DNA of 64,000 nt, taken from Trichoplax sp. H2 (Eukaryota). A program made the position numbers and the translations under genes. Every line of letters begins with the position of its first letter. The stretch's first letter is position 1. Under the pieces are notes generated by a model. It saw nothing but the letters and a program-made list of their open reading frames with translations, searched no databases and was not told the DNA's origin. Of the stretch, positions 9,001 to 47,194 are shown in pieces. The stretch lies in assembly GCA_003344405.1 (NCBI GenBank), contig NOWV01000171.1, forward strand, positions 53,558 through 117,557. Direction: 5' to 3'.

Positions 9001-9207
9001 GTAAGCTCGTTGAAAATCATTATCGGTGTTGGTAGCGGATACCTTTATTCGTTTTGCTATTATTTACCTAGCTAAAACTACTTACAAGATCGTAACTTGA
9101 TAATACACCAACACTTGATCATACGAGTATACTAAATTCATAGCCAAATTGGCTTTCTATCTTGTAATTTAATGAATTGAATTAAATATTAACTATTTTG
9201 CTTATAG

Positions 9208-16500: not shown

Positions 16501-16659
16501 TTCGACACTGTTGTGTTAGGGCATAAACTGAACCGAGTTGGCGATATTTCGATTTGATTATTTTGAGCTTGATTTCTATTCAAACATGCTGTACAGTATG
16601 TAGAGTACAAGTATCGAATTTTTCATATCAGATTCAGGGCCAAGCAAGAAGCATTGGAC

Positions 16660-17350: not shown

Positions 17351-17508
17351 TACAGTACAGTACAGTACGGAGAACTCTAGACATGTACTGTACAGTCCTG
17401 TACTGGACGGTTTACTGTACTACAAAGTGTACAGTACAGTACAGTACAGTAGGATCCTTTTCCAAACCGATAAATCGGCACCTACAGTACAGTACTGTAC
17501 ACTGTACA

Positions 17509-17797
17509 GTACTGTATTTTAGTTAAGCCGGCATTTTGTTCCCAAATCCGCTCCATTTTTATATTTAACTTCATATTAAAGAATTGGACACCAAAAAGAT
17601 CACGCTGTACTATATGTACAGCAAGTGCACATCTTGTCATCGGCTTGCGATAAATCAGTACTGTATTTTACTTAAGCCGGCATTTTGTTCCCAAATCCGC
17701 TCCATTTTTATATTTAACTTCATATTAAAGAATTGGACACCAAAAAGATCACGCTGTACTACATGTACAGCAAGTGCACATCTTGTCATCGGCTTGC
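17509..17797. repeat. Direct tandem duplication, two copies of about 150 bp that are roughly 97% identical (17509-17658 and 17659-17797), bounded on both sides by (TGTAC)n tracts.
   Basis: The string 'gtactgtatttta[gc]ttaagccggcattttgttcccaaatccgctccatttttatatttaacttcatattaaagaattggacaccaaaaagatcacgctgtacta[tc]atgtacagcaagtgcacatcttgtcatcggcttgc' occurs twice. Confidence 0.8.
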
Positions 17798-18784: not shown

Positions 18785-22726
<3,942 letters not shown>

Positions 22727-23959
22727 TTGAAAAATACTCTATACAATTGTACATGGTAACCATTTGTATTATGTAGCAGACTTATTTATTGCGTTTTTAC
22801 GGTTATCAGGCTTGCTGCTGTATATTAAAGTGGTATGTTACAGTTTTAGTAAGGTGACAAAAATAGACATCAACAGGTTGTAGTAGTATTTATGCAATAG
22901 AACGACTAACAAATTTAATTGGATGAATAAATGAGGTATCTGTTATTAGTTTCCATGCATGTGGCTTTGTAACAGTATATCATTCTTTATGAAACGATGG
23001 CAACTGTAAAGTATGAAGCAGCAGAATCCGTAGGTCACATTCACTTACAATGCAATTCTAACTTTTATTCAGAATTAGGAGTAGTGTCGCATAGCCAAAA
23101 AAAAGTAGTACTAGGAAGTAGATGTAATTGTTTACGTGTATTAGAGGTCTGGTATTTGGGTTAAGCGACGACAAAGAGTTACTGGCATACGTACAATGTG
23201 TGTTGTTAACAACGATATGACATATACAGTATAGTAGTGTATGCTTGAATTCAGCATCATCAAATAAAATTTAATTTAATATACTAGGAGTCAATATCGG
23301 TGGTATACCGTACACTATAGACTATCATCATTTGCATCATATCGATGTAAATTTACAATGAACAACGCTGCAGTAAATATTCATGTGAGAATATTAGCTT
23401 GATCGAGGTAGCCCTCCCTTCAGGCTATACGCGTACTGTTCAGAAGCTGAGCTCTCTTTACTAAATGTTGCAGCTAAAATATCTTACACTGGATTGTGCC
23501 GAGTGCTAATTACATCCTGCTTGCTGTCTAGCTAAAAGCTGGGGAAAAATGATATCTATCTGCTTTAATACCACATTCTTATTGATTGACAGGTTAACTT
23601 GTAAATCCCTCTAGGCTGTCATTCACTTAGTATACTGCACTGAGTAGTTTTATAAAATGGTTGGTTTGATAACTTAGCGATCTGCACTATACTGTACAGT
23701 TATTGCAGCATAGCAATTGCCAGTAAACAATGTGATCTCTTTGTTACACCAAGATTCTACGGCATACAGCTTTTTTATCGATACATCTGTAACAGCTCTG
23801 TTGTGTATTAAATAACGAACCTTCTGTCAGTGATGGACTTTCCACTTCATCCATGCTGGATTGTGATTTTGTGGGGGGGCTAGCATTTAGCATCTAGCAT
23901 TTAGCAATAGCATTTAGCTTGCTAGAGGAGGAGGAGCACACGAGGATTTACAATTTAGA

Positions 23960-24130
23960 GTACAAGTACTTTACAGTACAATGTACTGTGAAGGTATACA
24001 GTACCAACCCGTACTGTACTGTACCGTACTTTGTACTGTAAACGTTATTACAGGCCCACTATCAATCTATTGTACTGTACAGTCTACTGTACTGTACTGT
24101 ACAGTACAGTACTGTAATAGTACTGTAGTA
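23960..24130. repeat. (TGTAC)n palindromic pentanucleotide microsatellite tracts in the divergent PRMT3/TEP1 intergenic region. A (TAGCATT)n-like repeat lies at 23884-23925.
   Basis: Runs of 'gtactgtactgtaccgtactttgtactgta' and 'tgtactgtacagtctactgtactgtactgtacagtacagtactgta' are seen directly. Confidence 0.8.
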
Positions 24131-24335
24131 ATAATAACACTGGTGTGTGTCATTGAAATGACGTAATTTACTGAGAGTAAAGTGAAGTGAATTCATTACA
24201 CTGACGCTTGCCGTCTGAGTGGTACTGTACGACTCGTATCAAGCGGTCGGTATCCACGCAACCTATCTGCTGTATCGGCGATCAAAATAAGATGGACGTT
24301 CTTTTTCGCCTATGAAAATCTCAATATAACCAACC

Positions 24336-27300
24336 ATGTCTGAAAGTAAAGCGAATACTAGTGGAAGTTCATTGACTGCTAATAGGAATCTGTTGAGTAC
24401 AACTGGTGTTGGACTTGATAGCGGCAGTTCCACAGCATTATCGAGTAATCTATTGTCCACAAAGTCTACTCTATTGACCACCGTTGAAGGTACTGATTGA
24501 GATACGAGTTGATGGAACATGCAATACTTTCCATTTATCACATAGTATGTAGTTAGAAAGATACTAGACGATCTTATGAAATAGTTGCTTTCTATCCATG
24601 ATAAATAATAATTAAACAATGTATCCGTAATTCTTTATAACGAATATTTTAGAGATTACAACGTCTAATAGCATCGTCTAGTAACGCCTTTGCGCTAGAG
24701 CTTATAAATAAAACAAGGATACCTTTGAAGTCTTGGATCCAACATCATAATAGGATAATGCAATAGACTGATTGCTTGATTTTATTATATTTCCATACAG
24801 CCAGACAAAGTCGCCAAAATGCAGCTATGGCGAAATCACATCCAACACCGATGAGCAATCTGTATTCATTGGCTAATCCTAATCTTAAATTTACCAGTTT
24901 AGGTGGTACTCCACAAAGTATGCATGTATCCACGATCAGTTCAACCATGAAGGTAAATACTGAATTGAATAAATTAACTCATCCTACACCTGCAGTTGCC
25001 AACTTATCACAGCAAAATAACTGGACCATGGGACAGTCAACTGTAGCGAAGAAAACTAATTTATTAAGCTCAAATATGAACAAGCGTCACTGTAGCGGTC
25101 ACGCTTTAACCAACTATCAATTGCAACAAAGTACCAGTATTAAACCGAAAACGCTTAGGACTCTCTCCAGTATAGATAATACTAAGAGCCAAATTGGTGA
25201 TGTTACCATTGGGAAACAAGTTACCAATGATGATCAAATATTAAATGATCGATTAAGGTTATTATCTTCTCATACAGTTCATACCTACTTATTATTAAGG
25301 ATAGTGATAGATAATAAATGGTATAAATACCTTAAATTGCGCCGTCAACATTATATTATGATATCAAATTAATTTCTATAATATAAAAACAGCGATATTA
25401 AATATATATATATATATATATATATTTATATTCTCTATCTTAAGCTAATTAGTAATGTCAGTACTACAGTAATATGATCGATTAAATGGTATTGTTGTAT
25501 TAGTTCAATGATGTACGTATACTTTAACCTATATTTAGGAAATCCAAAATTAATCAGTAAAATTACGGTCAATGTGCATTGCTGCATATCGAAAATTTGG
25601 CCCAAAGTGATTATTTTATTTTTTACATTTTCATGCCTCCTTCGATAGCAACGTTGTCGACGAAGAAGAAATGATTCCAACTCCGGAATACGATCTTAAG
25701 GATTGGAAAAGCACCTCTGAAGATGATTTTGACGCAGAGGATCATATGGAAAAGCTCTATGCACCACCCAAGACTAGTTCAGATATTAGTAACTTGAAGG
25801 TTATATTCCCTTTTTATCGCTTAACCTTTGCTTACCGTTATAGAAATAAATCGCATGTCAGTCTACTACAGCACAGCGTATGTCAATAATAAATAAATAT
25901 ACCAACACTATACTATACTGTATATAGCCATTAATATCAATTTTTTTAAATTTTCTAGAAATGCTTAATCAACGCTGCTTCCTCGTCATTGATTGGCTCT
26001 CCTGATTTTAAAAGTAGAAAAGATTTCACCAGGCGGCAGCTGAAATTTTTAGCTAACAAAATCCAGATTTATGACCCAGAATTCATTCTTAAAGTACGTC
26101 TTACATATATTGTATCCCTACTCAAACTGCTCTCTACCTATCAACTCAACTATTAATACACGCCATCGAATATGTCCTATAATGACTGTTATACAACAGA
26201 TCTAAAATGCGTAATATATTATTACATAATTTTGCTTAAATGCTATATTGCAAAAATAATCTAAGGTCCTTTTTAAATTTCTTTGAAGGTTTCGTTGTAT
26301 ACACGCCAAGAGTTAGGAATACGTACTGCTGCTAATTTCTTATTGGCACTGGCAGCTAATATTCAAGCTTGTAGACCTTATCTGAAGAAATACTTTTCTA
26401 CAATAATTAGACTACCATCGGACTGGATTGAAGTTGCCGAATTATACCAGGTACAATAATCTCGTATAATTATGCGAAATATTATTTTCAGACTATTATA
26501 CTGTACGTGCAATATTATGTTTTCTGATTGTTATCCGTAATAAATTTCTATTCTATTTTTAATACTGGCCCTCTTAAAATTAGTCACTACATGATAAAAC
26601 TATAAGGATAGGATCTTTACCTAAGGCTCTACGGAAGGTCATGGTAGATAAATTCGGTGGCTTTGACGAATATCAGTTGGGTAATGCTATAGATAAGGAT
26701 GTAGTAATATACAAAAATTCTCAGATAATATAATTGTAATATAACAGTACGCTTGTGTATATATTTGATAGCTAAATATAATAGACAAAAGAGAAAAAAA
26801 TCAAGCCAGAATAAGAAAACGGATAAAACTTCACAGTTGGATCAAGCGGAATCAAATAATTACGCCTCAGAATTCAACGATATTATTTTCAGTGATGACT
26901 CCGAAGACGAAGAAGAAACAGTTCAAATGATGTTTACCTTAAAACAGTTAATTCGAAAATTGCATATAATCCAGCCAGCTGAACATGTTATGGCATTAAT
27001 TGGAAAAAAGTAATATATACAGTAGATTGCGAGCACATGTAACACTGTAGTAAAAGTAAATAATAGAATCAGTTTTACTGTTGTAAATTTTTTCTGTAAC
27101 TACATAATAATCTGTGATACCTGTCCACTAGATATCCTGTAGACTTAGAAAGTTTTCATAAGAGTGGCTTGTCTGGTATTTGGAATTCGGTAAGACACTT
27201 TCTTATTCTTGTTAATTATGTAACATATAATATGCATAAATTACTTATTCATGAATGTTACGTATACACGTAACAGGAACGAGCTAACAAGCGAATGAAA

Positions 27301-30300
27301 TTACCAGTTCCTGAAACTTGGGAGACGCAGTTATCATTGCATGGTAATAAAGCTTCAACATGGGAAACTCTAATTGGTAAGTCATTAAGATTAGCCACAG
27401 GACATATACGTTACCTTAGTTTACAGCATCTTTGTATAATATGACACTAATGGCATTCATGTTTAGTGCAATGCGTAATCACTTAGCAACGCCTATGTGA
27501 TCAATTTTGTGATTATTTTAGAGCACCAGAAGTTACCATTTATAGCCACTTTAAGGAATTTAAGAAATCTAATTAAGGCTGGGATCAGCGACAAGCATCA
27601 TAACCGGATTATTCGTAGACTTGAAAATGAAGTAAAGAGTATTTTATCCCCTTGTTTATATACAAATTATTCACGAAGTAACGGATTTCAATTAAAATAA
27701 TGTTGATTGATACCTGATTGGTTAACTGATTAATTTTTAGAATTCAGTTATCAACAGCAAATTATTCCCTTTTCGTTTCTTTACGGCTTTTGAAGCTATC
27801 AATGGATATGAAAAGACGTCGCAAGGTATAGTTATTTACGTCCTCAAAATTTATCTACGATACTGAAATATCTAACGGCTGTTATCAGAGATATAAGTGT
27901 CTATTGGGATAATGGTTCTTATTTATTCATATACATTTTTGTTGGCAAATATTTTGAAGCTGGAGAATCTGGTAATCGCTTTAACAGGAAGTTTAAAAAA
28001 TCAAATACGAAAAAAAAGAAACAGGTTGAGATGTAAGTAGATGTTGGTAATCTGTTTAACTAGCATTGCTGAATATGAATAAAAATTACTTTTTAACTTC
28101 ACCTTTAGGCAAAAAACGGTTTCTGAAGCGCTTCTCAAACGATACAGGGAAGCATTAGATAATGCTGTAAAGGTAGCTACAAATCACAACGTTGCTCCTA
28201 TTTGTGGCTCAACCCTCATTTTATGTAATGTTGCTGACGTGATGAAGATTCCTTGTACTGCAGCAAGAGGTCTTGGTAAACCTAGAACGGTAAATTTACC
28301 TTATCACGAATTCTTTAAGCTTCATCATAAGCGTTTACCAAATAGGTAATCTGCTTACCACTATGATTGCTGATGAGATATCTGTACTTTATTAGTTGCT
28401 AGAAGTTGGCATTTTGTTAGGCTTAATGTTCAGATACTCCTGCGAACAGTCTGAATTCATCATTTATGCTGATAACTGGAAAAAGATTGACGTATTCAAC
28501 ACTAATAGCATTCTTGAAAATACCGAGTCTATCTGCACGCTAGTTGAAGTTAGTGAATATCACACGTTCTTATTTTAATACCCCTAACAGTATAATTGTA
28601 TACAGCAATGATGTCGATATCTTTCTTTGATTTTACTACAAAGAAATCAATGATCACTACAAGTCCAAACGGATTCCCTGAACAAGAAATGCTGAAATAT
28701 CTTAAAGACCGAATTCAGGTGTTTAGCAAGCCATTCATAGTCTTTTTATAGATGAGCTATATTTATTTAATACGCTGTCGTTTATTTTCAAACGATACTA
28801 TTTGGCTATTGTAGCTTGACAACCTCATTCTCCTTTCGAATGGATCAAGCGAAGTGCCTAATCACAGCGTTATGAATAGTTTTCTAACCAAATATAGAAG
28901 AGTAGTAAATCCGAATCTACTTTACGTTAATGTGAATTTAAGCGGAAAAGTAACTGGGTGAGTTATATATATTTAAATGCAGTCAGTATTGCAATCTTAA
29001 TCATTAACATAATAATTCGATATATTCTTACTGTTTATAGATTTGATAGAAATAAGAAACTCAGCCATGAAAATGATGTTTACGTTACTGGGTTTAGCGA
29101 CCAAATCTTAAAGTTAGTACTTTATAGCCAATATTATTATACTAAAATTGAATTCCTTTGTTGATGTCAGTACTTCCTGTTAATAAGTATACTGCTTACC
29201 ATAATTATTATTCATACTACTAAATTTTTAAGTAAAGTCGAAACTTTTGATGCGTTTTCAGTCGTTCAGAAATTACTTTGCATCTACAATAAAATATTAT
29301 TTTTATTCATCATTATAAAAAGAAATAGCTTTATTATGCTGTATTTGTCTAAATTTATTATTTAGAAATATTTACTTCTGCTTTTTATACGTATACGTAT
29401 TTTATAATAGATTTGTGGCTGATAGAGGAGGGGATGGACAGTTAATCAACGTGGAGAATATTGATAATGCTTATAAACTGAAATCTATCAAGATACCTAA
29501 TGTAATAGGGTTTTTAATGAATAAAAGTAGATCTGAAAAGCTCTCTTGCTAATGTAATATCATTATCTTATAATTTGATCAGGCTATCTCAAGTGTTGAT
29601 AAAAGTGAGGACAAATCGTATGGTATCGGAACTTTTGATATGTTTTTACCAAGGTCTTTAAAATCTGTCTTTACGATAATTCTGCATTATCAGCTCCATA
29701 GATCATTCCCGAAACTACAACATTCTGATGTAAATTCCCTACATTTTTAGGTGGAAAACCGTTCGTGTTTTCATATCATCTACGTTCTTAGATATGCATG
29801 GTGAAAGAGATATTTTAACAAGGTATGTTTTTCCGGAGTTACGCGCAAGATGCCAGCGTCATTTTCTGAATATTTTTGAAGTGGACCTTCGTTGGGGTAT
29901 CAACGAAGCTGACATACAACATAATAGGTAAAATTTAAATACAAGCGTTATAATAAATATAGTAGTAGCAAATTAAAAGATAGTATACAAATACGGAATT
30001 AATTCATCAATTTTTGTTTACAGTATGCTCGAATTATGTTTAACTGAAGTCCAACGAAGTGATTATTTTATTGCTATACTTGGTCAACGATATGGTTGGT
30101 GCCCTCAAGGGTATGAAGTTCCACCAACTAGCGAATTTGATTGGGTAAGAAACTATCCGCCAAATAGGTCGGTGACCGAGCTAGAAATCCAACAAGCTAT
30201 ATTCAATAACCCATCCGAAGCAATTCGAAAATGCTTTTGTTATATCAGAGATAACACTTTTGAGAGGTAAGCAGATAATGAAATGTTTTATCTATTTATG

Positions 30301-33300
30301 ATCTCTGCTTATGTTACAAACGATAAACTCTTACACATCGTCGCAATATCGATCTTAGATTTCTGTTCTTAATTAACTGGATCTAATATAGTTCTTCATT
30401 TTTCCGTTCTAAGTGATATACCTAAGAACTGGCTATTACAATTTGTCGATGATTCTGATATTGCAAAGGAGAAGATCGATAATTTAAAAAATCGTCTTCG
30501 GAAATGTGGCGTAGAAACTTATGAAAGGTATTACATGCTGCTCTAAACTTTTCATTTTCTCTACTGCAATGTTATTAACCAGAAATTGGCTTTATTTCTA
30601 ATCAATTTTGAAAGATATCCGTGTAAGTGGGGTGGTATTGTTGACAAAAAGCCTTACCTAACAAATTTAGAACAGTTTGGTCTTAGGGTTTTGCATAACC
30701 TATGGAATGCAATTGAACGCGACTACATTCAAAATGACAATGTAGGTCTATTGAACAAGCTTAAACAATAAACGAATTTTTCCTGAAATATACTAAATAT
30801 GTATGTACAATAATTATGTTAATGGTGCGCTTTTTCTTGAATACATTCAAGGACAATAACTTCGAAGATGAAGAATACAACACACAAATTTCAGTTGTCG
30901 ATTTACACTCTAAAGATTTTATAGGCAGGAAGCGATTATGTAAGGAATCGAATGATTTGTTGCATGAAAGTGAACAAGGAATTATTTTATACTGTGGTAA
31001 AAAAGGTTGTGGAAAAACTGCTTTAATGGTAAGACTGCATTTTTAATAGCAAAAGACGAAAAGTCTTAATAGGTAAATGTAGGTAGGTTATAATTGCTTA
31101 TTATTTTAATGTAGGCCAGACTAGTAAAAGACCAAATGTCGACCACTAACTGGTGTCATCGAATTATCCCTTATTTTATTGGTTCATCAAGCGGTAGCTG
31201 TAAAATAACTAACTTATTACACTATTTTTGCCGGCAACTGAAGCGAGGGGCTGACATTGTTCAAGAAATACCTGATACATATCAGTTCGTATACCATATA
31301 TATTCTTAATATCGTATGTTTTAATGATATTAAAAGGTTTGTATGTGCAAATTTTCGCAACATTTAGGGAGCTTGTTACATGTTTTCATGAATTCCTTAT
31401 CCAATCGGCATCCTTTCATGGTAGCAATCCAGTGATAATATTTATCGACGGTTTAGATCAATTGAATTCGTACTACAATGCCAAAGACTTGCAATGGCTA
31501 CCTCAATTAATTCCTGAGGTTTGTAGTTCAATTCTTTTTCGAGCGACAGTTTAATCCTTGTTGTTCTAGTACTGTAGATAATGCGGCTATTGGAGTGTGC
31601 TATATTGACTTTTATAAATGTCACACTTTGTGGTAATTGTTCGATTTCAACGTTCGACCTATAGATTTTAATAGTATAATGTGCGTATTTTTATTTTTAG
31701 AACGTGTTATTCGTAGTAAGTGTAAATGAAAACGAAGACTGCTTTAAGAATCTTGAACATCGATCAGACATTATCCATAATTTTAAGCTATCGGGAATCG
31801 ATTCGTGGGAGAAAGCTACCTTTGTCCGACAGATTCTTCAAAAATATCGTAAAAGTCTTGATGAGTCCAATTTTAATAAACAAATGAACGTTCTAATATC
31901 CAAACGTGAAGCATCTAGTCCATTATTTTTAACTTTAGCATGTGAAGAATTGAGAATGTTTGGAATTTTCGAGCAGGTATGATTGTTCAGCGATATAATG
32001 TATGTTGTAGTGTATTTAATAATTAATTCGATATTAATAGTGTGCAAATGTTTATACAATGCATATTTCATCCTTTATTAACGGATAAAATTACATAGAT
32101 CACCGAACGAATTAAGACTATATCTCAAACTATACACGGACTATTGGAGCAAACCCTTGAAAGGATCGAAATAGATCATGGAAAAGAAATTGTAACAGCA
32201 TTATTTCAAGTTGTACTCAGCTCTAAAGATGGTAATTATTACTGGATGTTACTTATCGGAAATTACGCAAATAAAGTGTCCCTTTTCTTTTATCAAATAA
32301 TTTTAATTCTTTCTAACTGATGCCTAACGTCGTTTCCAGGTATTGACGAAACGTATCTACCTCTTCTTTTGGGTGTATTAACATTACCCGAGATAAAGAA
32401 AGACTTAATGCAGATTTCAATTAAAAAGTTATCACAATATACCACCAGTGCACTACCTATTTGTCCGCTGATGTATGCCAGACTCCTCCGAGCTGTTAAG
32501 GAATTTCTATTTCCGGCTCAGCAGCAAGATCTCGTGTAATTTTTATTTCGTTTTACGATTAGTCGAGCGTCACAATGATTTTGTATCTGCTCTTATGCCA
32601 TTATATACTTTTGTTACGTATTGAACATTACAAATACTGTAATATTAAGAGCTTTATTAACGCGATTGACAGAAGTTCCTGTCAGCTAGCTATTCAGCAC
32701 GGAAAAATTAAGGAAGTCCTAGAATCTCGCTACACGAAAATGGAGCGGTCCAATAAACTTGCTTTTATACATAAAACATTAGCTGGTATGAATAACGTAT
32801 AATAATATTTCATATTAAATTCAACCGCAATTTTGTTCGGTTATGCAATACTAAAGCATAATCTCGTGTCTTTGAAGCCTTTTATCTGGTAAAAGCGGAT
32901 CCTACCAGCAACCGATCTTGGGAAGGTTTTGACCCATGGGCTTTTATTGCGTTACCTTACCACTTGGTAAATCAACAATTATAGCATAATTTTACTGCAA
33001 CCGACTTTAAGTATTGTAAAAATGTACAAAATTCCGCTTTTTAGATTCGTGGTGCTTGTTATAATGAATTATCGGAGCTCTTATGTGACCTGAAATTTAT
33101 TACCGCTAAATGTAAACTTGGCTTAGTAAACCACCTTATCGATGATTACCATGGTCAAGGTTAACGGACCCAATTCAAATGTCTGTAAAAATCATTGTAT
33201 AAATTTATAACGCTTATCAATATTGAATTTAAATAGTTACTTTTGAAAGAGTGAGTGAAGATAAAGCATACCACAAAGCCATGAAGCAACAAAAAATTCA

Positions 33301-36300
33301 GGTTTACGCTAAATAATAACTACTCTAAAATGTTTACAAACTAAATGATGTCAATTAAGAACATACCCACACTTATATCTGCAATATACTGTTATACGAA
33401 GTGTATTGACAAAACCTGCTTCAACTGTGTACCGTAATTTGCAATAGTAACTTATCATGAGTAGTCAAGTTTAAGGATTGACTTTTACCCATTTTTTGGC
33501 TATAGGATTTTGGAAATTTTGTTTCCAGAAATTTAAGCATCCTTAAGACGTAAGTATGAGTTTAGTTTCCTTTACGACAGTAACCGAATATGTGTCTAAG
33601 ATTGCGAATTTTACTGAAAGTATTGACCCGAAATGATTAAGCATTTAATAATCTTTGAAGGAATGCGTTTTTATGCCAGCAACAAGCTCTTAACGAGCCG
33701 TTAAATACCTACCCAGCTGAATTAGCCGCTGCACAAATAAAGACTGAAGCTAGGTCTTCGAATAATCTTATTATGGAATGGTGTAATAAGCCAACTTATT
33801 GCAACCCATGCTACATGACTCTCGAAGGATTTCAACAGGTAACTTGTTTTGTTCTTACAGCAAGATAGAATCTTCAGAGCTTAAGCTTTATTACAGTAAT
33901 TTTAAGATGTTTGTTACATTACATTTATTGCAAATAATAATTTATTAGTATACTATACTTGATATAAAGTGCTAAAAAAGGAAAGTGATTGCGGTACTGA
34001 TCTCGTATAGGAAACAATTATTATTGCATTTGCAATATACGAGTACTATTAATAATGTCGAACTGAAGTCAAAAATTCTAGAACTTCTGTGCTCTTGTAG
34101 TTAATATTTATAATTTTTGCTAGCCACTCCTAGCCATTGCCATATCAGAAGATGACCAATACGTTGCTTGTGGTTCTAAAGATTGTACTGTTAAACTATT
34201 CGAGCTATCGACGGCAAAAGTAACCAAAATTGACTATATTAGTTTCTCTTTTAGTATTTGATCGTAGGGGTAAGATGCGAACAAACACATTTGCTATGTT
34301 ATCATAGGAATTAAAGAGTTTCGTTGGTCATGCGAGGCCGGTAACTGATTGCTGCTTTATTGGCAGTAAGTATTTATGCAGCGCCTCACTAGACGGTAAC
34401 ATTAGCGTATGGGATTTAGCTAACGGTCACAGGTGTGCTTCGATACAAAATATACGTAACATGTGAAACTTATCTCGTAACCGCATTTATTACTGGATTT
34501 AAAATTAGTCTTTGTACAGTACTGTTTAGAATTCACTTCCAAATTGTCAGTAAGAATTTTTGATTTTTGTATTTTTGTATAGACGACATATACTCTCGCT
34601 ACACCATAGATCGATATGTCAGTGTACAGTGGATAGAAATGAGAAATTTATAGCGTCGGCTTCACTAGACGGGAACGTAATAATTTGGAAAGTTAACGAT
34701 GGAAGTTCATTTGGCAAATTCAGTGTAAAAAGGTTCGCTATGCCTTTTAATTTTTAAGTACAAAAATTACATTAAATTTCTTTGATTGATTCTAGTATTA
34801 AGATGATTTCATAGTTCACGAAACCTATTTATTACTTTCAATTACATAATTAATATCATTAACTTTTAGCAACCGCCCCTTCAATTGCGTATCATTCCAT
34901 CCCGAAGCACCGTTAATTGTAGCTGGTAATTGGGATACAAATATTTATACCTGGGATGTAAATACGAAAGAACAAAAGCAGGTAAGATACAAACTTTATC
35001 GACTACTTTTTTTAAATCCAAAGACATTCGGCACATAGAGTAAGTATTGACGCCGCTCATCCTCAGAATCCTTATTCTAATGATCATACCTAGGTACTAC
35101 GTGGACATACAGCCTCTATTAGAGATGTCGCATTTTGTAATGGTGGTAATTTTGTTATATCTGCTGATATATCCGGACAAGTTATGATTTTTTCTTTAGC
35201 TCACGGAACAAATGTATGATGATTTTGGAAATACGCATTTCGGGTTGTTATGGAGCTCTTCGATAATAATTAGAAACTGTGGTATGATACTCTTTCTAGG
35301 TTGGCAGCTTGCATGGTCATTTCTTCCCTATAAACAAAATAGCAGTATCCAGTAATCCCCACGTATTAGCAACTGCCAGTGATGACCATAAAGTAAAGGT
35401 AAGTTTAACTCCATTAATATATCATTAAAATTAAATAGAGTATTTAGGATCAGTAATAAGTGTCCACAATCTCGAAATGCTTATAGCTATGGAGGAATAC
35501 ATTAGGCAGGGCATTATTTTCCAGTCATTTTGAAATGCAGCGAATGACTGCGGTTAAAATTAGCCTTAGCGGAAAGTTTATCGCAGTTGGATCATCAAAT
35601 GGTGATTTATCTATTATTGACCGAAATGTGGGCAATCAAATTTTATCAGGTAATTACAGAGAGTGACATGTATGAATTCCGCTTTTATTACTATAATCAA
35701 TTATTGCAATTACATCGAGATCTAATCAATTACTATCGCTTTGCGTTAATGCTTCAATTTTTTTGCAAAAGTATTCGTGAATGAAATTTTCGATAATAGC
35801 GTAGTTTATCTTTACAAGTGCCTTACTAACAACTGCTCTATACGCATAAACTTCTCTATATTTAAAATCAACTAGTGTTGATATTGATATTTTTCAAACT
35901 TAGTTCAAGCACATAAACAATGTATTCGATCTCTAACCTGGTCTCCATGTGGATTAAATATTATCACTGCATCTGATGATAAAACTGTCAAGGTCTGTCG
36001 TGTTACTTACCTTTATACTATTCCTGCTGCAGCATCACATATTTCGATATTATAAGTTTCGAAATATACATACTGATGTAATTGTTGTTATTATTAGGGC
36101 ATATATAATATAATATAATCTATTACCAATAGTAAGGTTGCATCCATTTATGACTATACAGATTATCAACATTGAACATGCGGATATTAAAGAAACATTA
36201 TCTGACCATTCTGCAGCTGTAACATGCATTGCCAGTTCAAAAAAGTATTTAGCTACAGGATCGGAAGACTGTTCTATAAATCTTTACCACAAGCACACTG

Positions 36301-39300
36301 TGTATCGGTTAGTTATTTCACTGTCAAATGAATTAAATTGTAATTAATAAGAGCTCATCTGCTGGATGATACAGTATTGTTTGTTCTACGCAAAATTAAT
36401 AGCATAAATCCAAATTTGTAATCATACAATGATTGTCAATTACTTTACAGGCTTGATTCAAATCTCAGTGGACACACTGCATGTATAGCGGCTGTTGATA
36501 TCTCATCAAATGAAAAATATTTACTATCCAGTGGTCATGATAAGGTGATTCTACCTGTATCGAAAGCGTTCATACTGAGTAAACAGTCTTTATATAAACA
36601 TCACCCTATTAATTAACTACACTACACATTCATTTGCTGATAGGTCATTCGTTTATGGAACATTAAAACGAAACGATGCGTAATTGAAAGTCACGAAAGC
36701 CATTTAGATTTAATAACAACATGTGCATTTGGTTCAGTTCATGATACTGTTGTAAGTAAATTATTTTTATAGCGATAACTTTTATATAAATTATGCATCT
36801 GTTAGATAAATCACAGCAATCGATGTCTTAGCGTAAAGCAAACACACAATAATCATCTAGGTAACCGCATCAAACGACCACACGGTTAAGTGCTGGGATG
36901 CTTCGGAACTATCCTTAGTCCTTCATCGTAAGAAAGTTTTGATTCCTGTCTCTGAAGTACATAGTCACAATAGCGCGGTTAATACTGTGTCAGTTGCGGT
37001 AAGTTGTGCAATTTAAAATTTAAAAATGTATAACAGTCCATTATGTTTAATTCACTTTATATGAGTATACAGATAATTAATTTGTATTAAATGCGACTTC
37101 TCGCCAGTTACATTTCCTTTATCCGAGCCAACATAATTTAATCATTCAATCTGCAGAAAAACTTGATTGCCTCTGCCTCTAGCGATGGAACTGTCGTTAT
37201 ATCCAACAGAATGGGTATTGAAATTACTTCCTTTAAGGCACACTCAGATCGAATTAATGCTTGCCATTTAGTGTTTCTGGATGGAGGTGAGTTTGAAACA
37301 ATTATGTTAGCATATTTCTATTGTGTTCCGATTTTCAAATTTGAATACTAAGAAGATGTGTACGCTGTAATCATTGGTGTTGTCTGTACCTTCAATTTTT
37401 GATTTAAATCATAGATTATTACTTAACAACTAGTGGTGACGATGGCTACGTTAAAACCTGGAGGCCAATACAAGTCTGTTTTTTCTTTCTACTTATGATT
37501 CATAGAGTAAACTAATATTTTCAGCATTCATTATAAATTATTTTTACTAGGGTGAAGAAATTTCTTCCTTAGTTGGTCATTCGGATCGTGTAGTCGCTGT
37601 CAAAGTTAGCCACAGTGGTAAAACAATATGCTCTGCTTCTATAGATAAAACAATCAAATTTTGGCGTACGGACGTGAGTTGGAAACTTGTAATATCTTTG
37701 TATAGAAATTATTAAGACTTTGGTTATTACTAAATTTAGCAAGAGATATAACGTCAATGCTTTATTGCAGTTTAATCATGTTAAGCAAGCGCATATATCG
37801 GCAGTTACAGGGGTGACTTTTTTATTTCATACGAATATCGCTGCGTCTGCATCTAGGTAAGTTAAAAGTATTGAGATGAGATAACAGCTGGAAAAAAGAT
37901 GAAATCCAACAATTTAATAATGCTTCAATAATAATCGCAATTGTATCATTTAAATTTATTAGAGATGGGATGGTCATTATTTGGAAACTGTTTTATAAAG
38001 ATGGGAAGCTGGCTCTAGAAAATAGATTACAATTTCAAGTATACATTGCGGAATTTTGCATATAAATGTGTAGCCAATTATTAAATATCCGATTACGTAA
38101 GGGATACTTTTCAGTACTAATGCATTATCCCCATAGGCTAGCGATGAGGCTGTAAACTGTCTTCGTCTCTATGGTGATACCGATAATCATGGTATACATT
38201 TAATCACCGGATCAAATGATTGTAAGGTGATAGTATGGAATATAGAGTTGGATGGCAGCCCGACTGTGATGAATTCCATTGAGTACGTTTTTCAACTCCA
38301 TGTGTAAAACTACAGGAATAATTTAAATGTATAAAGACTTTTAAGCATAATCTAAAACCTTGTATCATCAGGTTGTCAGCACCTGTTCTATGCCTCAACA
38401 TTCATAACAAATTACTCTATATTGGAACTTGGTCTGGCCATCTGTCTGTTTGGAATATAGGAACAATGATGGAAGTTAATAGCTACACAAGGTAAAATAA
38501 GAAGAAATATAAATGATGTATTGGTGCTTAATAAACCTTGTTAGATAACTAAATTTACATCGAAGACTACAAATACCTCTATAATGTAAAGGTGATTTCT
38601 ACTCTTTCACTATTCCTAAATACGATAGGTTGAACAATGAATGGATTTTAAATATCGATATATCAAACACATCACCCTATTGTACATGCGGTACCACAGC
38701 CTGTTTTGCTACGGTGTATTCTACATCCGAAACCAACAACAAAATTTTGCGTCATGTAGCAATTCCTGACGACAAAGCATCCGAACGTAACAAGCATCAT
38801 GCTTGTGTTTCGTACTTTTTAACCAGTCAGATATTAGCCATGAACTTAAATATAGAATCAATAGATGAAGTCTTAATTATAGGCGACAGTGATGGTAATA
38901 TTTTTGTATGTGATGCTAACAAAGAATACCTTCATCGCAAGGTACGATATTTTCATTTTTTCTGTATAGTAAATAATTTTACTAAAACCTAATTAAATTG
39001 GCAACTTGATACAATAGCACTCATAATAAGACTGGCCAAATTACAGGCGCTGATTAATTGATTTTCTTTGATAACCTTCACTTAGCTCCATACTGCAGCG
39101 ATATCAGAAATCATTCAAACAAAACAGTATTTAATTACGGCTTCCTGGGATTCTACTATCAAGATATGGGAATACGAAACTTTAAAACTTGTAGGCCATA
39201 TTGCACTATTACGATAGCTCGATTATAATTACCGAGCGTATAGTGATTGGATGTTGCATGTCCGGCAAAATAAATGATTGAATTCATTCCCTTTCTACGA

Positions 39301-39423
39301 TAGGTTGGTAAATTCTATTGCCAATCACCTGTGACATCTATGACTGCTATTATGTCTTGGGACAATTCTGGTATCCTTTGTGGTGATTACTTGGGAAATA
39401 TCTATTTGCTGCGATATATGTAG
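24336..39423 (+). CDS. TEP1: TEP1 (telomerase protein component 1, vault-associated) orthologue, a large multi-exon gene. Exon 1 is 24336-24489 (MSESKANTSGSS..., Ser/Thr-rich) and exon 2 starts at 24801. The TROVE domain lies at about 25960-27700 (EFILKVSLYTRQELGIRTAANFLLALAANIQACRPYLKKYFSTIIRLPSDWIEVAELYQ; FTLKQLIRKLHIIQPAEHVMALIG; KLPFIATLRNLRNLIKAGIS). A VWA-like region lies at about 28090-28330. The NACHT NTPase lies at about 29780-32520 (MHGERDILTRYVFPELRARC...DLRWGI; YFIAILGQRYGWCPQGYEVP; RYPCKWGGIVDKKPYLTNLEQFG; P-loop CGKKGCGKTALM near 30996-31026; IIFIDGLDQL; NVLFVVSVNE...FNKQMNVLISKREASSPLFLTLACEELRMFG). WD40 repeats span about 34100-39420 and end ...GDYLGNIYLLRYM*, with stop at 39421-39423.
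   Basis: Segment-by-segment colinearity with human TEP1 across the TROVE, NACHT and WD domains, for example human ...ALYTRQQLN...LPACRP...LPSDWIQVAE(F/L)YQ; FRDMHGERDLLLRSVLPAL...[96 protein letters not shown]. Exons are bounded by canonical GT/AG sites, and numerous six-frame ORFs fall in register on the plus strand. Confidence 0.85.
25402..25425. repeat. (AT)12 dinucleotide microsatellite inside TEP1 (probably intronic).
   Basis: Seen directly: atatatatatatatatatatatat. Confidence 0.9.
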
Positions 39424-40324: not shown

Positions 40325-43300
40325 TTAAACATTCCTTTTTAGCCAGTCTTCTGCAACTCTTTCATAACTATTGATCCACGAAATTCTGTTCTTAATACTT
40401 TCAACAGACTGCTTAACAGCGTTAGCACCTGTGCCTACATCAGGATTCTGTCTGAAGAAATCTTCAACCTAGAGAAAGGCATACACAACTTATTAATATA
40501 CAGTATAGTCATCCATGCAATCTTCAGGGTTGTTAAAATACTAGATTCACTCTTGCTTCAATCTTAAACTTGCCTGCTTCAATCTAAATTGTGATGCAAA
40601 CCGTCCAGCAGTATTTCTGATTAAGCTACCAAAGGAAAAGAAACTGCCGCCATACCTTTAACAAAATGTACAAATTTTAGTCATAATTATAAACATTCCC
40701 TTGATTCGAATACTAGTAAACATCATATAATGTATAAGATTTTACGTTTTCCTAATATATGCCCAATTAGCACGAACGAAGTCCCATGCGAGAGGCCTGC
40801 CAACCAAGTTATTGGCAATGTAACCAATAACAACAGTAGAATCTTGGGAACGAACTTTAGCAGGATCAATGGACCACCTTAAGTACCTACAAACAGTTCA
40901 ATAATTTTTTGAATGTTTAGTGTACGAGAATTAAGTTAATTAATCATTGCAATTGGTAAATCCATCATCAGAAGTCACAATGTACCTATTCAGAATCCAC
41001 GGTTCCTTTGAATATGACAAAGCATCTAATATAGTTCGTTTTTCGGAAGCGACATTCGTTTTATAGAAGTAATTATACAGGAAATCCCACTCTGCGATAC
41101 CTCCATTAGCTATACCAAAACGGTATACAACCGCCTTCAAGTTCGGTTTTACGCTAATGTTGAATAGACGATTGATCTCACTATCCCCGCTTTGCAAAAA
41201 GTCACCTTGACTATGCAAGTATTCTGTATTTCCAGGTAAAATTAAATATCAACATTAACTTACGCATTATTTGTGGGGTCCGCCATAAAGCGACGGAAAA
41301 GCAAAGTTGCATTATCTAAACATGGCTTGTATCCAAATCCACAACCAATAGTTAAGGCCGACATGCGCAATAATCTGATTAAATTTGATGGCTTATATCA
41401 ATTATTGAAATTATGGTAATTTTATAATTTTAAGGTAGTAATTAGTATGTTCAGTTTTTTAAAGCTTACTATTAATACATAATTATAGTAAAAGTTAAAA
41501 ATACTCACTTCTGAGTATGACTCCCTTTGTCTTCAAAGCCAATCGTGTCCAATAAAGGCTTTAATTGCTTCAAGTAATATTGCTAAATAATAGGGTATAT
41601 AAATAAAAGCTCATAATAAGCTTATCACATTCATAATGTGAGATTATTTTATTATAGTTGTATAATTAAATATATGTGTCTAAGTATACATATCTGTCAT
41701 TTACACTAACCGAAAAGTAACCGTAGGATGAACGATATGATATGATGGATCCAATAGCGCCAAGTACAGAGTTTGCAGTCCTCCAAGGAACATAGCTTCT
41801 TTCTTTCGTAAGATACTTTGTTGTACCAAAAGCGATGTCGTAACTGAGCTGGCCAACTCTACAAAACGAGAAATTAGCGTAACAAGTTTATACAGGACAA
41901 AACCTTGAGAAGTACTTGGAGACTTCAAGGGTTCATTATAATTATCGATCAGTCCCTTATTACCTTGCAAGATTAAAAGCGTCATCAAGTAGATTGGAGA
42001 AATCTCTTTTTGATAATGCCTGTCACGCATACGGAAAGCAACGATCAGTATTTCATGAATATTTCAATACGTTATAAGCACATATGTCAAACACTATAAA
42101 ATCAATCAACATTTTTTAAATGCACGCCATCATTATTGGAAAAACTTACCGGTTGTGTTTTCTGCATTTCCTGGATGAGGAGATTCCAATTACTTACTGG
42201 ATAGTTAACTCGGTAATAGCCATAAGCATCTTTGTTGGCCTTCAGCCAAGTACCAGCTGGCCAAGCTATATTGAGAGCTATTTAGGAATTTAAAATTACA
42301 TAATTACCAAACTTGTTGTAAAGTACAAAATACTCAAACACAACATTGGATTTTAGATCGCTACAGTACTTGCAAAATACTTTTAATCTATCTAACTATT
42401 TATAATCCACATATGCATGAACGTAGCTTACTGGAACTCATGTTAACCATTGCACTTCGAATTGTGTTCGGCGAATTTCCAAGAATGTATTTAAGCGGGA
42501 TATTCCACTTGTATCTATTAATTTAAAGCAATTAGCCAAGTCTAGCTTTCTGATAAGCTTACGCGGATCAAATTTTATTCATCTTTAATAAATGTAATTA
42601 GAGATACTACTAATAATAAATAAATATTATCATACCCATAGGGTGACCTGAATTTTGAGGTTGCTGGGTCAACCTCGGGATTTTTATTATTGGGATCCAA
42701 CAAGAAACGTTTTTGTGAGAGTCGAGCTTGAGAACCTGTATTCGTGATAGTAACGACAGGAAATCCCATTTGCAGTGTCCAAGTATCCATAACATCAGTA
42801 ACATTTATCCTGTAAGAAATGGCCTTAAATGTTGCCATAATAATTCGATCAATGATGTGCTACGGGCAATTAACTACAGAACTTTATGATAGTGCTTGTA
42901 AATCATTAATATACATATCCGATTAAATTTTACCTCCGATAAAGTTTGCCAAAGATCTCGAGTTACAGCATTCCGATATTCGAATTTTTTTAAGTATCTC
43001 TACATTTAAGAAAAGTAAACGTACGATAAAGAGATAATCTAAAAACTTTTAAGCCATCAATGTGCAATCAGTTTTAGAATATATGTCATACCGAAATGCC
43101 ATTCTTGAAATCCAAATTACCCATCATATCTCTCATCATTCTAATGATCGATGCACCCTACATTATAATTGAAAGATTACTTACTAACTTCTATTACAGT
43201 ACCAACGTTTCAAAAAAATTAAAATATCCACAATTCAAAAATAGGTTTCAAAGAGAACAGACCTTCGCGTAAGAAATTGTGTCGAAAACTTCATTAATTT

Positions 43301-46300
43301 CGTCGGGATGATAAACAGTAACTTGGACAGGATGTGAAGTTACAAATGCATCCAAAGAGAAGGCGCGCTGTACGTCGATAGGTACAAATTGATCGAGCTA
43401 TTCAAACAAAGAGCACAACAATTGTAAATTTTTAGCAATATAAAACTATAGGGAAATCACGTATTATCTATCCACTGTGGTGATCATCATTCTCTAATTA
43501 TTGGGGAAATTTAAAATTATGTATTACCATTTCCCATGTAGGTTGATAATGATCAGTGCCGAGATATTCCATGAAACTAGCAAAGCCTTCGTTAAGCCAA
43601 AGATCATCCCACCACTTCATAGTGACTAAATTACCAAACCACTACATGTTCAAATAGAAATTGAATAACTTAGTTCACAACAAGAGAGTAACGTAGGAGC
43701 TCATATCAATAATTTTTATTAACCATATGAGCCAATTCATGAGCCACTACATAAGCAACACGTTGCTGATTGTTAGCTGCAGAGACATTTGGATCATATA
43801 ATAAAGCAGTTTCGCGATAGAGAATTAAACCCCAATTTTCCATGGCCCCAGCAGCAAAGTCAGGAACTGCTACCATGTCTATTAGTTATTAAGGTGGCGA
43901 TAGGTATCAAGCGATTAGCAAAGCAAGAATAATGAAATGTATCAAACAACAAACTAATTACCGCATTATCAAGCATTACCTTGTTTCGGCAATGGGAAAG
44001 GAATACCGAAAAAATCTTCGAAGTAATCAGTTATATTAACACCACCAATTAAAGCGAAATTGCCCTGATTGATAGTATCGGTAGTTGCCCAAACCCTTAT
44101 CTAGATCCAATTTTAGTAAAATTTAGCTCCGCTGAGAAATTTTTAATTAATTTTAAATTGTATAAACAGGCAACATGAAACATAATGCTGTTTACTATTT
44201 ATGTTAACATACCGGTACTCTGTTTTTGGTCATCATTTCGATGTAAGTAAAATCGGCTAACACAAATGCAAGTAAGTACGAACTCATCCTAACACTGGCT
44301 GTAATAAATTGAAATATCGATCGTTAAGTACAGTTTCTATTTTAACAATAATAAAACAACGTATGCAAAGACTGAAATTTAATTACCAGGCTACATCAAT
44401 GGTCAATGTATCAAGGTGACAATACAACCTGCAAAGTCTTTCTTTGTACTGTACTACGCTAGATATGAAGTATCGTTCACTAAACTTACTGTTGTAGTCA
44501 TATCTTCTAAAACCAGGGCGATTAGGTATTGTAACATTTCTTTGAATTGGCATATTCCATAGAACGCTCGTATAATTTGATTGAGTAATGATTGTTGCTG
44601 TAAAATTGGCCTTCAATTCAGGCTCATCAAAGAGAGGTATAATCTTACGTGCGTCAGTTGGTTGACATTGGCTAGCTGCGATATTTCTAAATTGGAAAAA
44701 ATAACATTGCATAAAATTTTAGAAATGCAACAAATTTACTTCACAATTGTTAGGATTTACAGCAACACATTGACGTAACGATTGCTTCCCCCTCAATTTT
44801 TTTTTTTAATTCCGTCATTTCGATACTCGATTAACAAATTTAAAGTAACCTATCGTGCCGTTCGCATTGGCAACCCTACCCATCAAATACGACATAAGTA
44901 ATTTCTCCTACTTTAAAATAAACTCCATATCTAAAAATGAAGAGCCGCTTGTGCTACAATAATGATCACAACATTTGTTTTGGCACATGGCACTACGACT
45001 GGTGTTGACAACGCTAAACCGTAGTACAGTACAGTATAGTGAATTATTTACAGTACTTTGCGCGATTGTAATTTCGAAACTGGCCAATCAAATTCAGCTT
45101 CCAATTTACGTCACAGAGAGGCTGATTTGATAGATTGTTGTTCCGTCGAGGACACGTTTCATGTGGTCATGTAACCAGCATTCAGTGCGCACTTTTTAGA
45201 GCTCCAGTAGTAGGGTAAAAGGATTACAGCACGGTAGGAAAAGGATTACAGGCACTGTACGTACAGTACAATCATGGACTACTACAGTACAGTACTATAT
45301 GTACAAAAAACACTGTAGACTGTAGTCCATGGTACTGTACTGTGCCAGAGACTTCTCCGATAGGGCAATACGGTACAGTGGAAAACTCTCTTTAAAATGA
45401 GAGTCTGCTGAATCAGCCGCCAGAGTCAATTAGCCATTTAATTAATAATGACTTGGAACCATCACTGAACGGACGGCAAAATCAAAATAATACAGTACTG
45501 TAAAATCTCCAATCTATTTATCTACTGTACAGCAGCTAAAGGTGTGGCCCAAAGTAACGCACATTGGGGGACGCTAGAAATTTTTCCTTTTACCTTGATG
45601 GCTTGATGCCCGTTGATGGAAAGGAAGACTAAAACTTTTGATTTACCGCACCGTATTTGCACGGTATAGTAGTATATGGTTTACGTATCTAAACATAGCA
45701 GAGCCCAGTATTGCTCTGAGACATGATACGTCTGTGTCCAGTCTGTGACTGATTTAGTTGGACACTTACAGCACAGCATGTTGAACGTCATTGTCGAAAG
45801 CGAATATGCGTAAGTAAATAATTACCTTGTCGCATAAGCACACAACGTTGTTGTAATTAGGTGAACAGTTTCTGTACAATGCTTACGATGTGCAATTTAC
45901 TTTTACTTACATTACACGGCCATCCAATTTTGTGTAAGTACTTTTATACAAGCCGTTCAACGCAGTAGATAATGCTGCCCTAAAATTAAATCGGACGTAA
46001 TAGATTCCAGGATTAAGCGGGCTAGCCAGCACAATGTAGTAATAATCATTTAGCGCAAAAGCATTATGTTCGGATATCGTTAACGGGTTGCCAAAATTAC
46101 GTGTAGACGAAACCACTGGGGAACCTACTAATGTCATTTGCTTCATATGAACAATAATGATATTCGTTTGTGAAGTAACGGAGATTTCGATATCATTTTG
46201 GCCAGTAAACTGCAAGCCAATCATATCTACATCCAAAGAAAACCAGTACTGAATTGGAACAATATTTTTGGGAAGCCGAATGTTATTGACCGCCGGATAT

Positions 46301-46593
46301 CTCGATGTCGGTTTAGGTGCGGTAGGTTTGACTGTAGCAACAGTTCGAGTTGTGGTAGAACCTGAACTTTGAGTCATGCCAGGTCTTGTGGTCATCGATG
46401 GCCGCGTTGTAGCCATAGTTGCCTGGGTACCGCCAGATCCTTGTGCACTTCCTCTAGGAACAACACCAGCCATAATGCCAACCAATACGATCAAACCGAT
46501 AGCAACAGCAACTGCAATGATTAGATGACACTTGCTACAGTAGTAACCATTTGGTTTCTTTTCTCGCACTTCAAAATCCGTTCCTTTTTCCAT
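40325..46593 (-). CDS. Aminopeptidase N-like M1 zinc metallopeptidase (APN-A), a type II membrane protein. Exon 1 is 45911-46593 and encodes the cytoplasmic tail, the TM segment ([21 protein letters not shown]), a Ser/Thr-rich stalk and the start of the N-domain. Exon 2 begins at about 44706 (..[29 protein letters not shown]). The catalytic exon near 43560-43860 carries [53 protein letters not shown]. The 42575-42838 region carries [20 protein letters not shown]. The 40940-41218 region carries [13 protein letters not shown]...EPWILNRY. The stop is at 40325-40327 (...[17 protein letters not shown]).
   Basis: The intact GAMEN exopeptidase motif and the HEXXH-(18)-E zinc-binding motif are present. 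There is strong colinearity with vertebrate ANPEP (QPTDAR..FPCFDEP; [12 protein letters not shown]; EEWDFAWEQF...LWILNRYL). Canonical splice sites are used; exon 1 ends ..GRV-AT|gtaagt. Confidence 0.85.
45030..45345. repeat. (TGTAC)n tracts plus an inverted repeat (catggactactacagtac...gtagactgtagtccatgg) inside intron 1 of APN-A.
   Basis: Seen directly at 45030-45060 and 45255-45345. Confidence 0.75.
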
Positions 46594-47194
46594 CTTGTTT
46601 ATTTAATGTGTTATAGTAAATAGAACTTCCTACAACTGCAATCGTCACAAACTGTCGAAACACAGAAGCAGAAATAACTGCGAGGAGTACGAACTGTGAG
46701 TTGGCAGGAGAAAAAATAAAAAATAAAAAAAAAACAATCAAGACAGGCTAACTCAGTTCCGTTAACTGATCAGAAAAACGCTCTCCTGCCAATGATGATT
46801 AAGGGACAGGAGTAGCCAATAAAATAGCATGACCAGCCAACTATCGTGTTACCCAGCACGATACAGTTACCGTGCAGTATTGGTCCATCTGATACTAGCC
46901 AGTGGTTACTGACATGTGACATAGCACACTGTCTAGTGTACACTGCTGTGCGCGGTTGGCTACTATGGTATAGTCACACAGTACAGTATAATTGGTCGCC
47001 GTCCTTTGATTAAACGATTAATAATAAAAAAATTAATTAGCACTGCCCGTTTAACAAACATCAAATTATCATAATAATAGAGCTTTATTTGATCTGACTC
47101 ACTTAATAAAAGCTGATGGCAGAACCAGCCAGAACTATGGTATACTTTCTGCCAAGTTTCTATTAACGTTGATGTTGGGCGGAGCCTAATGGCG

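Follow-up and report, generated by a model that had tools for sequence, protein, structure and literature searches.

A predicted, architecturally complete TEP1 gene in the placozoan Trichoplax sp. H2

We analysed a stretch of 64,000 nucleotides (nt) of Trichoplax sp. H2 DNA (assembly GCA_003344405.1, contig NOWV01000171.1, positions 53,558 to 117,557 of the forward strand), hereafter called the window. A first annotation of its letters, the sequence-only reading, had proposed that it holds a complete gene for TEP1 (telomerase protein component 1, minor vault protein). This was borne out: positions 24336-39423 of the plus strand correspond to one intact TEP1 coding gene, modelled as 57 stop-free exons encoding 2572 amino acids (aa), from an ATG at 24336 to a TAG at 39421-39423 (Table 1). 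The gene is very probably a functional TEP1 orthologue of this placozoan. The orthologue is real but ordinary, and was already annotated. The locus confirms the complete TEP1 architecture in placozoans, including a TIR-like NADase predicted to be probably active, in agreement with the published idea of vault components as old as early eukaryotes, and with the activity measured for sponge and Dictyostelium TEP1; it matters little beyond annotation quality. What we add is a gene model refined to 57 exons, which probably has one exon more at its 5′ end than the public model of 2435 aa, and the description of a pre-TROVE motif and of LL[ST] motifs that are common to invertebrate N-termini.

The DNA of the window is eukaryotic (30-37% GC), and between 24336 and 39423 dozens of short stop-free segments of the plus strand translate as one long protein. 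Concatenated roughly by eye, they matched the Pfam TROVE family across its whole profile (E=4e-102), together with DUF4062, WD40 in 10 stretches and two TEP1 propeller families, and the middle part of this concatenation matched DUF5920, NPHP3_N, AAA_22 and NACHT. To build the gene model, we wrote a splice-aware dynamic programme that scores codon log-odds and donor/acceptor matrices, and the junctions were then refined locally against a profile hidden Markov model (HMM) of 40 full-length TEP1 homologues. An initial version, in which introns were penalised only weakly, gave 134 to 181 exons, a heavy over-splicing, and was dropped; a model with a tblastn coverage bonus, whose exons ran into introns, was dropped for the HMM-guided refinement. 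All introns of the final model are GT-AG, with a median length of 110 nt (range 70-391), and the splice junctions in the WD40 part are, individually, computational predictions. No second TEP1 copy was found on either strand of the window by tblastn with 120 homologues.

The identity of the product as TEP1 is supported by its full-length colinearity with the family, animal and amoebal TEP1 included. The final model aligned to the TEP1 HMM as a single domain, from position 9 to position 2261 of 2264, with a score of 2402 bits and only six indels of at least 6 aa. The features of TEP1 proteins were found in it, namely the TROVE domain, the VWA-like domain, TeTIR with its catalytic Glu and RWG loop, the NACHT Walker A and B motifs and the TEP1-type propellers; the sole feature lacking is the set of TEP1_N repeats, which are not family-defining outside vertebrates. 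The sequence-only reading had described the TROVE, NACHT P-loop (GCGKT) and WD40 blocks as conserved, and the Pfam profiles confirmed all three. Its domain list, TROVE-VWA-NACHT-WD40, stands for the domains that it names, while it omitted the DUF4062/TeTIR NADase and the helical domain.

In the N-terminal half, TROVE is the best-scoring domain, and a profile search against the PDB returned two structures that contain this domain, 9l5y and 9kop (E=3.5e-12). Within it, the peptide LPSDWIEVAELYQ (aa 341-353, window 26412-26450) had been reported as identical to human at 11 of 13 positions. The motif and its conservation are indeed present, with a count of 12/13 against LPSDWIQVAELYQ of gorilla and bonobo TEP1, the apes being used here as proxies for human. 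In the VWA-like domain that follows, a DxSxS metal ion-dependent adhesion site (MIDAS) motif was sought and not found, the position reading NVADV; it is degenerate in every TEP1 that we aligned. For the fold, we used as a proxy the AlphaFold (AF2) model of a homologue, P0032, which is 51% identical over the TROVE-VWA module (pLDDT, the model's confidence score, of 78.8). The TROVE and VWA part of this model resembled the Ro60/Rsr structures 1yvp, 2nvo and 9kop over about 590 columns (E=1e-10 to 1e-12), and it also matched isolated vWA domains. The presence of a TROVE plus vWA fold in Trichoplax TEP1 is thereby confirmed only by proxy, through the predicted structure of P0032.

In the central ATPase, NPHP3_N (aa 1126-1252, 34.3 bits, cut-off 24.8) and AAA_22 (aa 1129-1251, 29.8 bits, cut-off 27) scored above threshold. 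The Walker A motif GKKGCGKT (aa 1138-1145, window 30996-31019) aligns with that of the orthologues, as does the IFIDGLD core of the Walker B motif VIIFIDGLDQL (window 31432-31464). Further on, APAF1_C matched aa 1489-1616 with 33.9 bits (cut-off 22.8). In the final model HTH_NWD1 (18.9 bits, cut-off 27) and NB-ARC (20.7 bits, cut-off 23.5) both stayed below the Pfam threshold, and no CARD was found by Pfam in the model protein. The C-terminal region scored 272.7 bits with WD40 in 10 stretches, 177 bits with Beta-prop_TEP1_2nd (cut-off 89) and 129 bits with Beta-prop_TEP1_C (cut-off 32), and follows the orthologue HMM colinearly as far as its position 2261.

Could the locus be a decaying pseudogene instead, or a member of another STAND family (NWD- or Apaf-1-like) lying beside a TROVE gene? 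A NACHT score that merely reaches its cut-off, and the partial matches to NB-ARC, HTH_NWD1 and APAF1_C, would go in that direction. However, the frame is continuous, with neither stops nor indels in any of the 57 exons, one colinear HMM alignment runs from TROVE to the last propeller, the TEP1-specific propeller families are well above their cut-offs, exons are about five-fold better conserved than introns (see below), and NWD, NPHP3 and Apaf-1 proteins are devoid of TROVE/VWA. We consider this alternative extremely improbable and effectively refuted already. Both outcomes that the sequence-only reading had set as fatal to its proposal, a NACHT/WD40 region assigned to another STAND family and an N-terminal region failing to score as TROVE, were examined, and neither held.

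Between the VWA-like domain and the ATPase lies a DUF4062 domain (PF13271, aa 874-985, 56 bits, E=4e-15). This domain, overlooked by the sequence-only reading, is now the one best understood in TEP1. According to 2026 preprints, DUF4062 (called TeTIR or NIR) has the activity of a TIR-like NADase, and TEP1 is an active NADase within vaults (bioRxiv 10.64898/2026.05.01.722283). With phmmer, the Trichoplax region matched the crystal structure determined for TeTIR of human TEP1 (PDB 11gz_A) over its full length (E=2.7e-61, 211 bits). The RWG loop is encoded at 29890-29898 and the catalytic Glu982 at 30184-30186. Residues F876, S879, R888, R916, W917, G918, C933, R950 and E982 are conserved, and correspond to human F902, S905, R914, R942, W943, G944, C959, R976 and E1008; the Arg, Cys and Phe residues that bind the substrate are thus among those kept. 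Human mutants F902A, R914A, R942A, C959A, R976A and E1008A are inactive, and the TeTIR domains of zebrafish, the sponge Amphimedon and Dictyostelium are active (bioRxiv 10.64898/2026.09.21.753143). Judging from these residues, the TIR-like NADase of Trichoplax TEP1 is probably active.

We next turn to the comparison with T. adhaerens. The PRMT3 locus of this reference (GCA_000150275.1, scaffold DS985241.1) aligned with positions 8.5-33.9 kb of the window in four blocks of 97.2-99.3% DNA identity, the two biggest of which, with 16.2 kb and 5.3 kb, both reach 99.2%; over the 25 kb compared, the identity is about 99%. The DS985241.1 record has a called gene at the same place, whose 2435-aa product matches TROVE, DUF5920, APAF1_C and many WD40 families, meaning that the TEP1 gene is already publicly annotated. 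The reading of the locus as an unannotated gene was rejected on account of this TROVE/WD40 product, next to PRMT3 in the T. adhaerens record. No placozoan TEP1 was present among the protein-database matches, either with a query going from TROVE to the helical domains or with one made of the N- plus C-terminus; since Trichoplax PRMT3 was returned normally and the annotated TEP1 was not, absence from the protein search is no evidence of an unannotated gene.

The divergence of exons and introns between the two Trichoplax sequences provides an independent check of the model. Exons differed by 8 substitutions over 4974 nt (0.16%), with no indels, compared to 35 substitutions over 4565 nt (0.77%) in introns (Fisher p=9e-6), about a five-fold contrast. 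Purifying constraint on the predicted exons is shown here by this comparison of sequences. The two models differ in length: exon 24336-24489 adds 60 residues to the public one, and the other ~77 aa that separate 2435 from 2572 aa must come from differing exon choices.

The N-terminal extension deserves more attention. Its first 254 aa are composed of 15% Ser, 12% Thr, 9% Asn and 5% Gln, and a Pfam search at E<=1 over about aa 1-265 gave no match, so that TEP1_N repeats (PF05386) are absent. Among the matches listed, PF05386 was present in mammalian proteins only; those invertebrate orthologues that we inspected show no such repeats, but Ser/Thr-rich tails. The sequence-only reading was therefore right in describing a Ser/Thr-rich N-terminus without the vertebrate 30-aa repeats, and wrong in calling it unusual, as mollusc, amphioxus, sea-urchin and horseshoe-crab tails are alike. 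Two signatures are shared with orthologues. The first is a pre-TROVE motif, PTPEYDLKDW...LYAPPK, in exon 3 (25683-25775), of which the P.YD[LIF]...[FY]xPP pattern aligns with TEP1 of amphioxus, bivalve, gastropod, sea urchin and apes. The second is LL[ST], of which the first 205 aa (the extension up to an acidic segment) contain 4 copies and the other 2318 aa only 2, and enriched in orthologue N-termini as well. The shared pre-TROVE motif and the LL[ST]-rich tails of orthologues indicate that a Ser/Thr-rich tail is the normal invertebrate state. Exon 4 contains no Met, hence translation must begin upstream of it. From these sequence comparisons, the Ser/Thr-rich tail probably belongs to the TEP1 gene, and it is plausible but unproven that exon 1 (24336-24489) is part of it, an assignment we regard as tentative.

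A shorter 5′ end is possible, though we rather doubt it: exon 1, or exons 1 and 2, would lie outside TEP1, and translation would start at 24827 or, in exon 3, at 25671. Consistent with this, no alignment of a TEP1 homologue extends upstream of 25959, no Pfam match falls in aa 1-254, and the 5′ end of the annotated T. adhaerens product corresponds to the ATG at 24827, which is Met61 of our model, inside exon 2. Exons 1-3 have 1 substitution in 762 nt and the introns beside them 7 in 861 nt, a difference that is only suggestive. On the other hand, the stop-free stretch of 201 codons at 24767-25369 is unexpected by chance at 33% GC (with ~0.075 stops per codon from the base composition of the window, P is ~2e-7 per start). 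In addition, the first 45 aa, encoded by exon 1, contain two NLLS-type motifs like those of bivalve, sea-urchin and amphioxus N-termini, and the 244 residues that precede TROVE here fall within the 200-290 found in orthologues. Finally, the closest homologue is preceded by a 280-aa Ser/Thr/Lys-rich open reading frame (ORF) ending in a PHYDLKL...FLPPELD motif. Our model keeps the start at 24336.

A further proposal, which we put forward tentatively and hold to be doubtful, is that the Ser/Thr tail with LL[ST] and the pre-TROVE motif represents the ancestral metazoan N-terminus of TEP1, and that the 30-aa TEP1_N repeats of vertebrates, which have DILSL cores, descend from it. If true, the N-terminal tail would be a functional array of short linear motifs, docking for instance MVP or a partner protein, and the public Trichoplax model would lack its first coding exon.

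How such a protein would work can be proposed from published studies of TEP1 in human, mouse, zebrafish, sponge and Dictyostelium. Its TROVE/VWA module would bind a small structured RNA (vault RNA, possibly telomerase RNA) and would anchor the protein inside the MVP vault shell. The NACHT-WD40 part would be a STAND switch with a trigger sensed by the WD40 region, and the NADase activity would increase when this part oligomerises in a nucleotide-dependent manner. The sequence-only reading had predicted MVP and possibly vault- or Y-type RNAs in this organism. The first half of the prediction holds, MVP having been reported already in the Trichoplax genome (Hertel et al. 2009, PMC2655684); as to the second, no such RNA was found, as detailed below. 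MVP and PARP4 were not seen in the inspected stop-free segments of at least 75 aa, the flanks not having been scanned with MVP or PARP4 profiles, and ARAGORN found no tRNA in the window.

Several points weigh against a functional, vault-associated TEP1 orthologue at this locus. The gene is known there as a predicted model, from its sequence alone, and has three candidate start codons, the ATGs at 24336, 24827 and 25671. The NACHT profile (aa 1136-1262) reached 26.7 bits, which is exactly the Pfam cut-off. In the NADase domain, human R908 is replaced by L882, the sole difference among the residues compared; Leu is also found in Cavenderia, and the human R908A mutant suffers a partial loss of activity (bioRxiv 10.64898/2026.09.21.753143). 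Vault association and RNA binding are deduced from vertebrate work only. No vault, Y or telomerase RNA was detected in the 64 kb window with Rfam, at gathering thresholds and at E<=1, and none of these RNAs could be found in Trichoplax by Hertel et al. (2009, PMC2655684). As regards the RNA partner, an intact TROVE module in Trichoplax would imply that placozoans have a vault-type RNA; TEP1 may then serve as a protein handle for a Trichoplax vault RNA missed by homology searches.

Another possibility is that the gene is a TEP1 orthologue, but that in placozoans it mainly acts as a free NADase sensor of the STAND type, an innate-immune or cell-death effector comparable to TIR-NLRs, and not as a vault component. 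The TeTIR-NACHT-WD40 core has the architecture of a STAND immune receptor, every catalytic residue is conserved here, and bacterial DUF4062 proteins act in anti-phage defence. Isolated human TeTIR is reported to deplete NAD+ and to kill cells. Moreover, vaults assemble even when TEP1 is missing, and in animals most vault RNA is found outside of them (PMC3762200). Against this, the part of the protein that is conserved best is TROVE/VWA (348 bits), through which mammalian TEP1 associates with RNA and vaults, Trichoplax is reported to have MVP, and human TEP1 is located inside vaults and active there; the vault and sensor roles are not mutually exclusive either. We consider a predominantly free sensor unlikely, and a vault-related TEP1 remains our preferred interpretation.

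The place of Trichoplax TEP1 among its relatives agrees with the orthology. TEP1 is a vault component of Metazoa and Amoebozoa (Daly 2013, PMC3762200), and the ancestor of eukaryotes is inferred to have had vaults, which were lost in fungi, insects and probably plants (PMC3762200). The 120 matches listed were overwhelmingly TROVE-bearing proteins of the TEP1 type, those named by their source being mostly called "telomerase protein component 1", at 31-52% identity. TEP1-type matches among them came from molluscs, chelicerates, a priapulid, amphioxus, echinoderms, vertebrates, crustaceans, a rotifer, a flatworm, Amoebozoa and a euglenid. Outside vertebrates, where the sequence-only reading had called its distribution patchy, TEP1 is widely documented (PMC3762200; bioRxiv 10.64898/2026.09.21.753143; the matches listed).

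Vertebrate TEP1 has its domains in an identical order (TROVE, VWA-like, TeTIR/DUF4062, NACHT, helical, WD40), with 32-34% identity over more than 95% of the query and an intron-rich gene in both cases. Both Walker motifs (A and B) are kept, together with the catalytic Glu, the RWG loop and 12 of the 13 residues of LPSDWI(E/Q)VAELYQ. Trichoplax differs by its Ser/Thr/Asn-rich LL[ST] tail in place of the 30-aa TEP1_N repeats, by the Leu that replaces R908 and by its very short introns. No categorical difference was found with the invertebrate and protist proteins (Amphimedon, Dictyostelium/Cavenderia, molluscs, Branchiostoma, Tachypleus, Priapulus), which have the same architecture, about 2200-2400 aa, 38-52% identity, and likewise a low-complexity N-terminal extension of 200-290 aa with a pre-TROVE motif. 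The closest relatives among the matches listed, at 44% identity, are on ENA metagenome contigs and encode TEP1 as one intronless ORF of 7.1 kb, whereas the Trichoplax gene has 56 introns. On one of these contigs (ERZ25067984, 881 kb, 38% GC), the stretch 9036-17089 holds the intronless ORF going from TROVE to WD40 and, 120 nt upstream of it, the separate Ser/Thr/Lys-rich ORF of 280 aa, which ends in the pre-TROVE motif.

More distant families share parts of the protein. Ro60 and bacterial Rsr have the TROVE ring and vWA fold of the N-terminal module, as seen through the P0032 model, but Ro60 ends after vWA, at ~540 aa, and keeps its MIDAS, while the Trichoplax product has 2572 aa, with NADase, NACHT and WD40 parts added and a degenerate MIDAS. 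It does not therefore belong with Ro60/Rsr (TROVE and vWA only, ~540 aa, intact MIDAS). NWD1, NWD2, NPHP3 and TTC41 have the TeTIR-NACHT core followed by C-terminal repeats, in keeping with the partial NPHP3_N and HTH_NWD1 matches; they are, however, without TROVE/VWA, and NPHP3 lacks the catalytic Glu that is present in Trichoplax. With TROVE/VWA present and both NB-ARC and HTH_NWD1 below cut-off, the protein is not of the Apaf-1/NWD type.

Table 1. Features of the window, with positions counted from its first nucleotide
Feature	Position	Strand	Residues	Remarks
TEP1 exons 1-10	24336-24489; 24801-25257; 25649-25799; 25959-26093; 26289-26450; 26584-26680; 26772-27009; 27132-27189; 27277-27376; 27522-27631	+		
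TEP1 exons 11-20	27741-27825; 27960-28032; 28109-28289; 28396-28548; 28644-28718; 28815-28957; 29041-29112; 29411-29501; 29583-29653; 29751-29927	+		
TEP1 exons 21-30	30024-30266; 30414-30527; 30615-30741; 30852-31028; 31115-31284; 31368-31518; 31701-31976; 32099-32231; 32340-32535; 32673-32785	+		
TEP1 exons 31-40	32878-32966; 33045-33159; 33237-33301; 33506-33549; 33661-33838; 34124-34219; 34308-34432; 34583-34732; 34870-34981; 35094-35213	+		
TEP1 exons 41-50	35300-35398; 35487-35649; 35904-35992; 36162-36307; 36451-36544; 36644-36751; 36861-36998; 37157-37286; 37415-37473; 37551-37673	+		
TEP1 exons 51-57	37744-37856; 37963-38038; 38137-38282; 38372-38491; 38629-38941; 39086-39190; 39304-39423	+		
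N-terminal extension	24336..25769	+	1-244	exons 1-3; Ser/Thr/Asn-rich, four LL[ST] motifs
TROVE (PF05731)	25770..28202	+	245-638	347.7 bits, E=1.6e-103, profile 11-440/442
VWA-like domain (DUF5920, PF19334)	28405..29483	+	671-839	33.6 bits, cut-off 27
TeTIR/DUF4062 (NIR) NADase domain	29752..30732	+	870-1086	
NACHT-type STAND ATPase	30960..31721	+	1126-1262	
Winged-helix and APAF-1-like helical domains	32105..33712	+	1350-1616	
WD40 beta-propeller region	33827..39420	+	~1655-2572	to the C-terminus
Riboflavin kinase	8839-9072	+		
PRMT3	18788-22738	-		C2H2 zinc finger and methyltransferase
M1 aminopeptidase	40900-46600	-		GAMEN, HEXXH (VVAHELAHM) and WLNEGFA kept, 43501-43885
Second M1 aminopeptidase paralogue	51539-59700	+		TTANWG, AYQIAQ and WLPESLS replace those motifs, 54078-54646

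As for the surroundings of TEP1, the genes follow one another as they do on scaffold DS985241.1 of T. adhaerens, and PRMT3 of Trichoplax sp. H2 and of T. adhaerens matches the PRMT3 exons of the window at 98.7-100% identity. At the T. adhaerens locus, a gene for an NAD-dependent epimerase is found between riboflavin kinase and PRMT3. Simple repeats, both tandem and palindromic and resembling TACAGTA, occur at ~16500-17520, 24000-24165 and 47100-47370, and translate as VQYSTVQY. Matches to miRNA families of Rfam within these repeats (E 0.04-0.7) were far below the gathering scores and are most likely due to chance. Downstream of TEP1 are two M1 aminopeptidase genes. The exons of the plus-strand paralogue are intact despite the loss of its catalytic motifs, and by its sequence this gene probably encodes a catalytically dead pseudo-peptidase.

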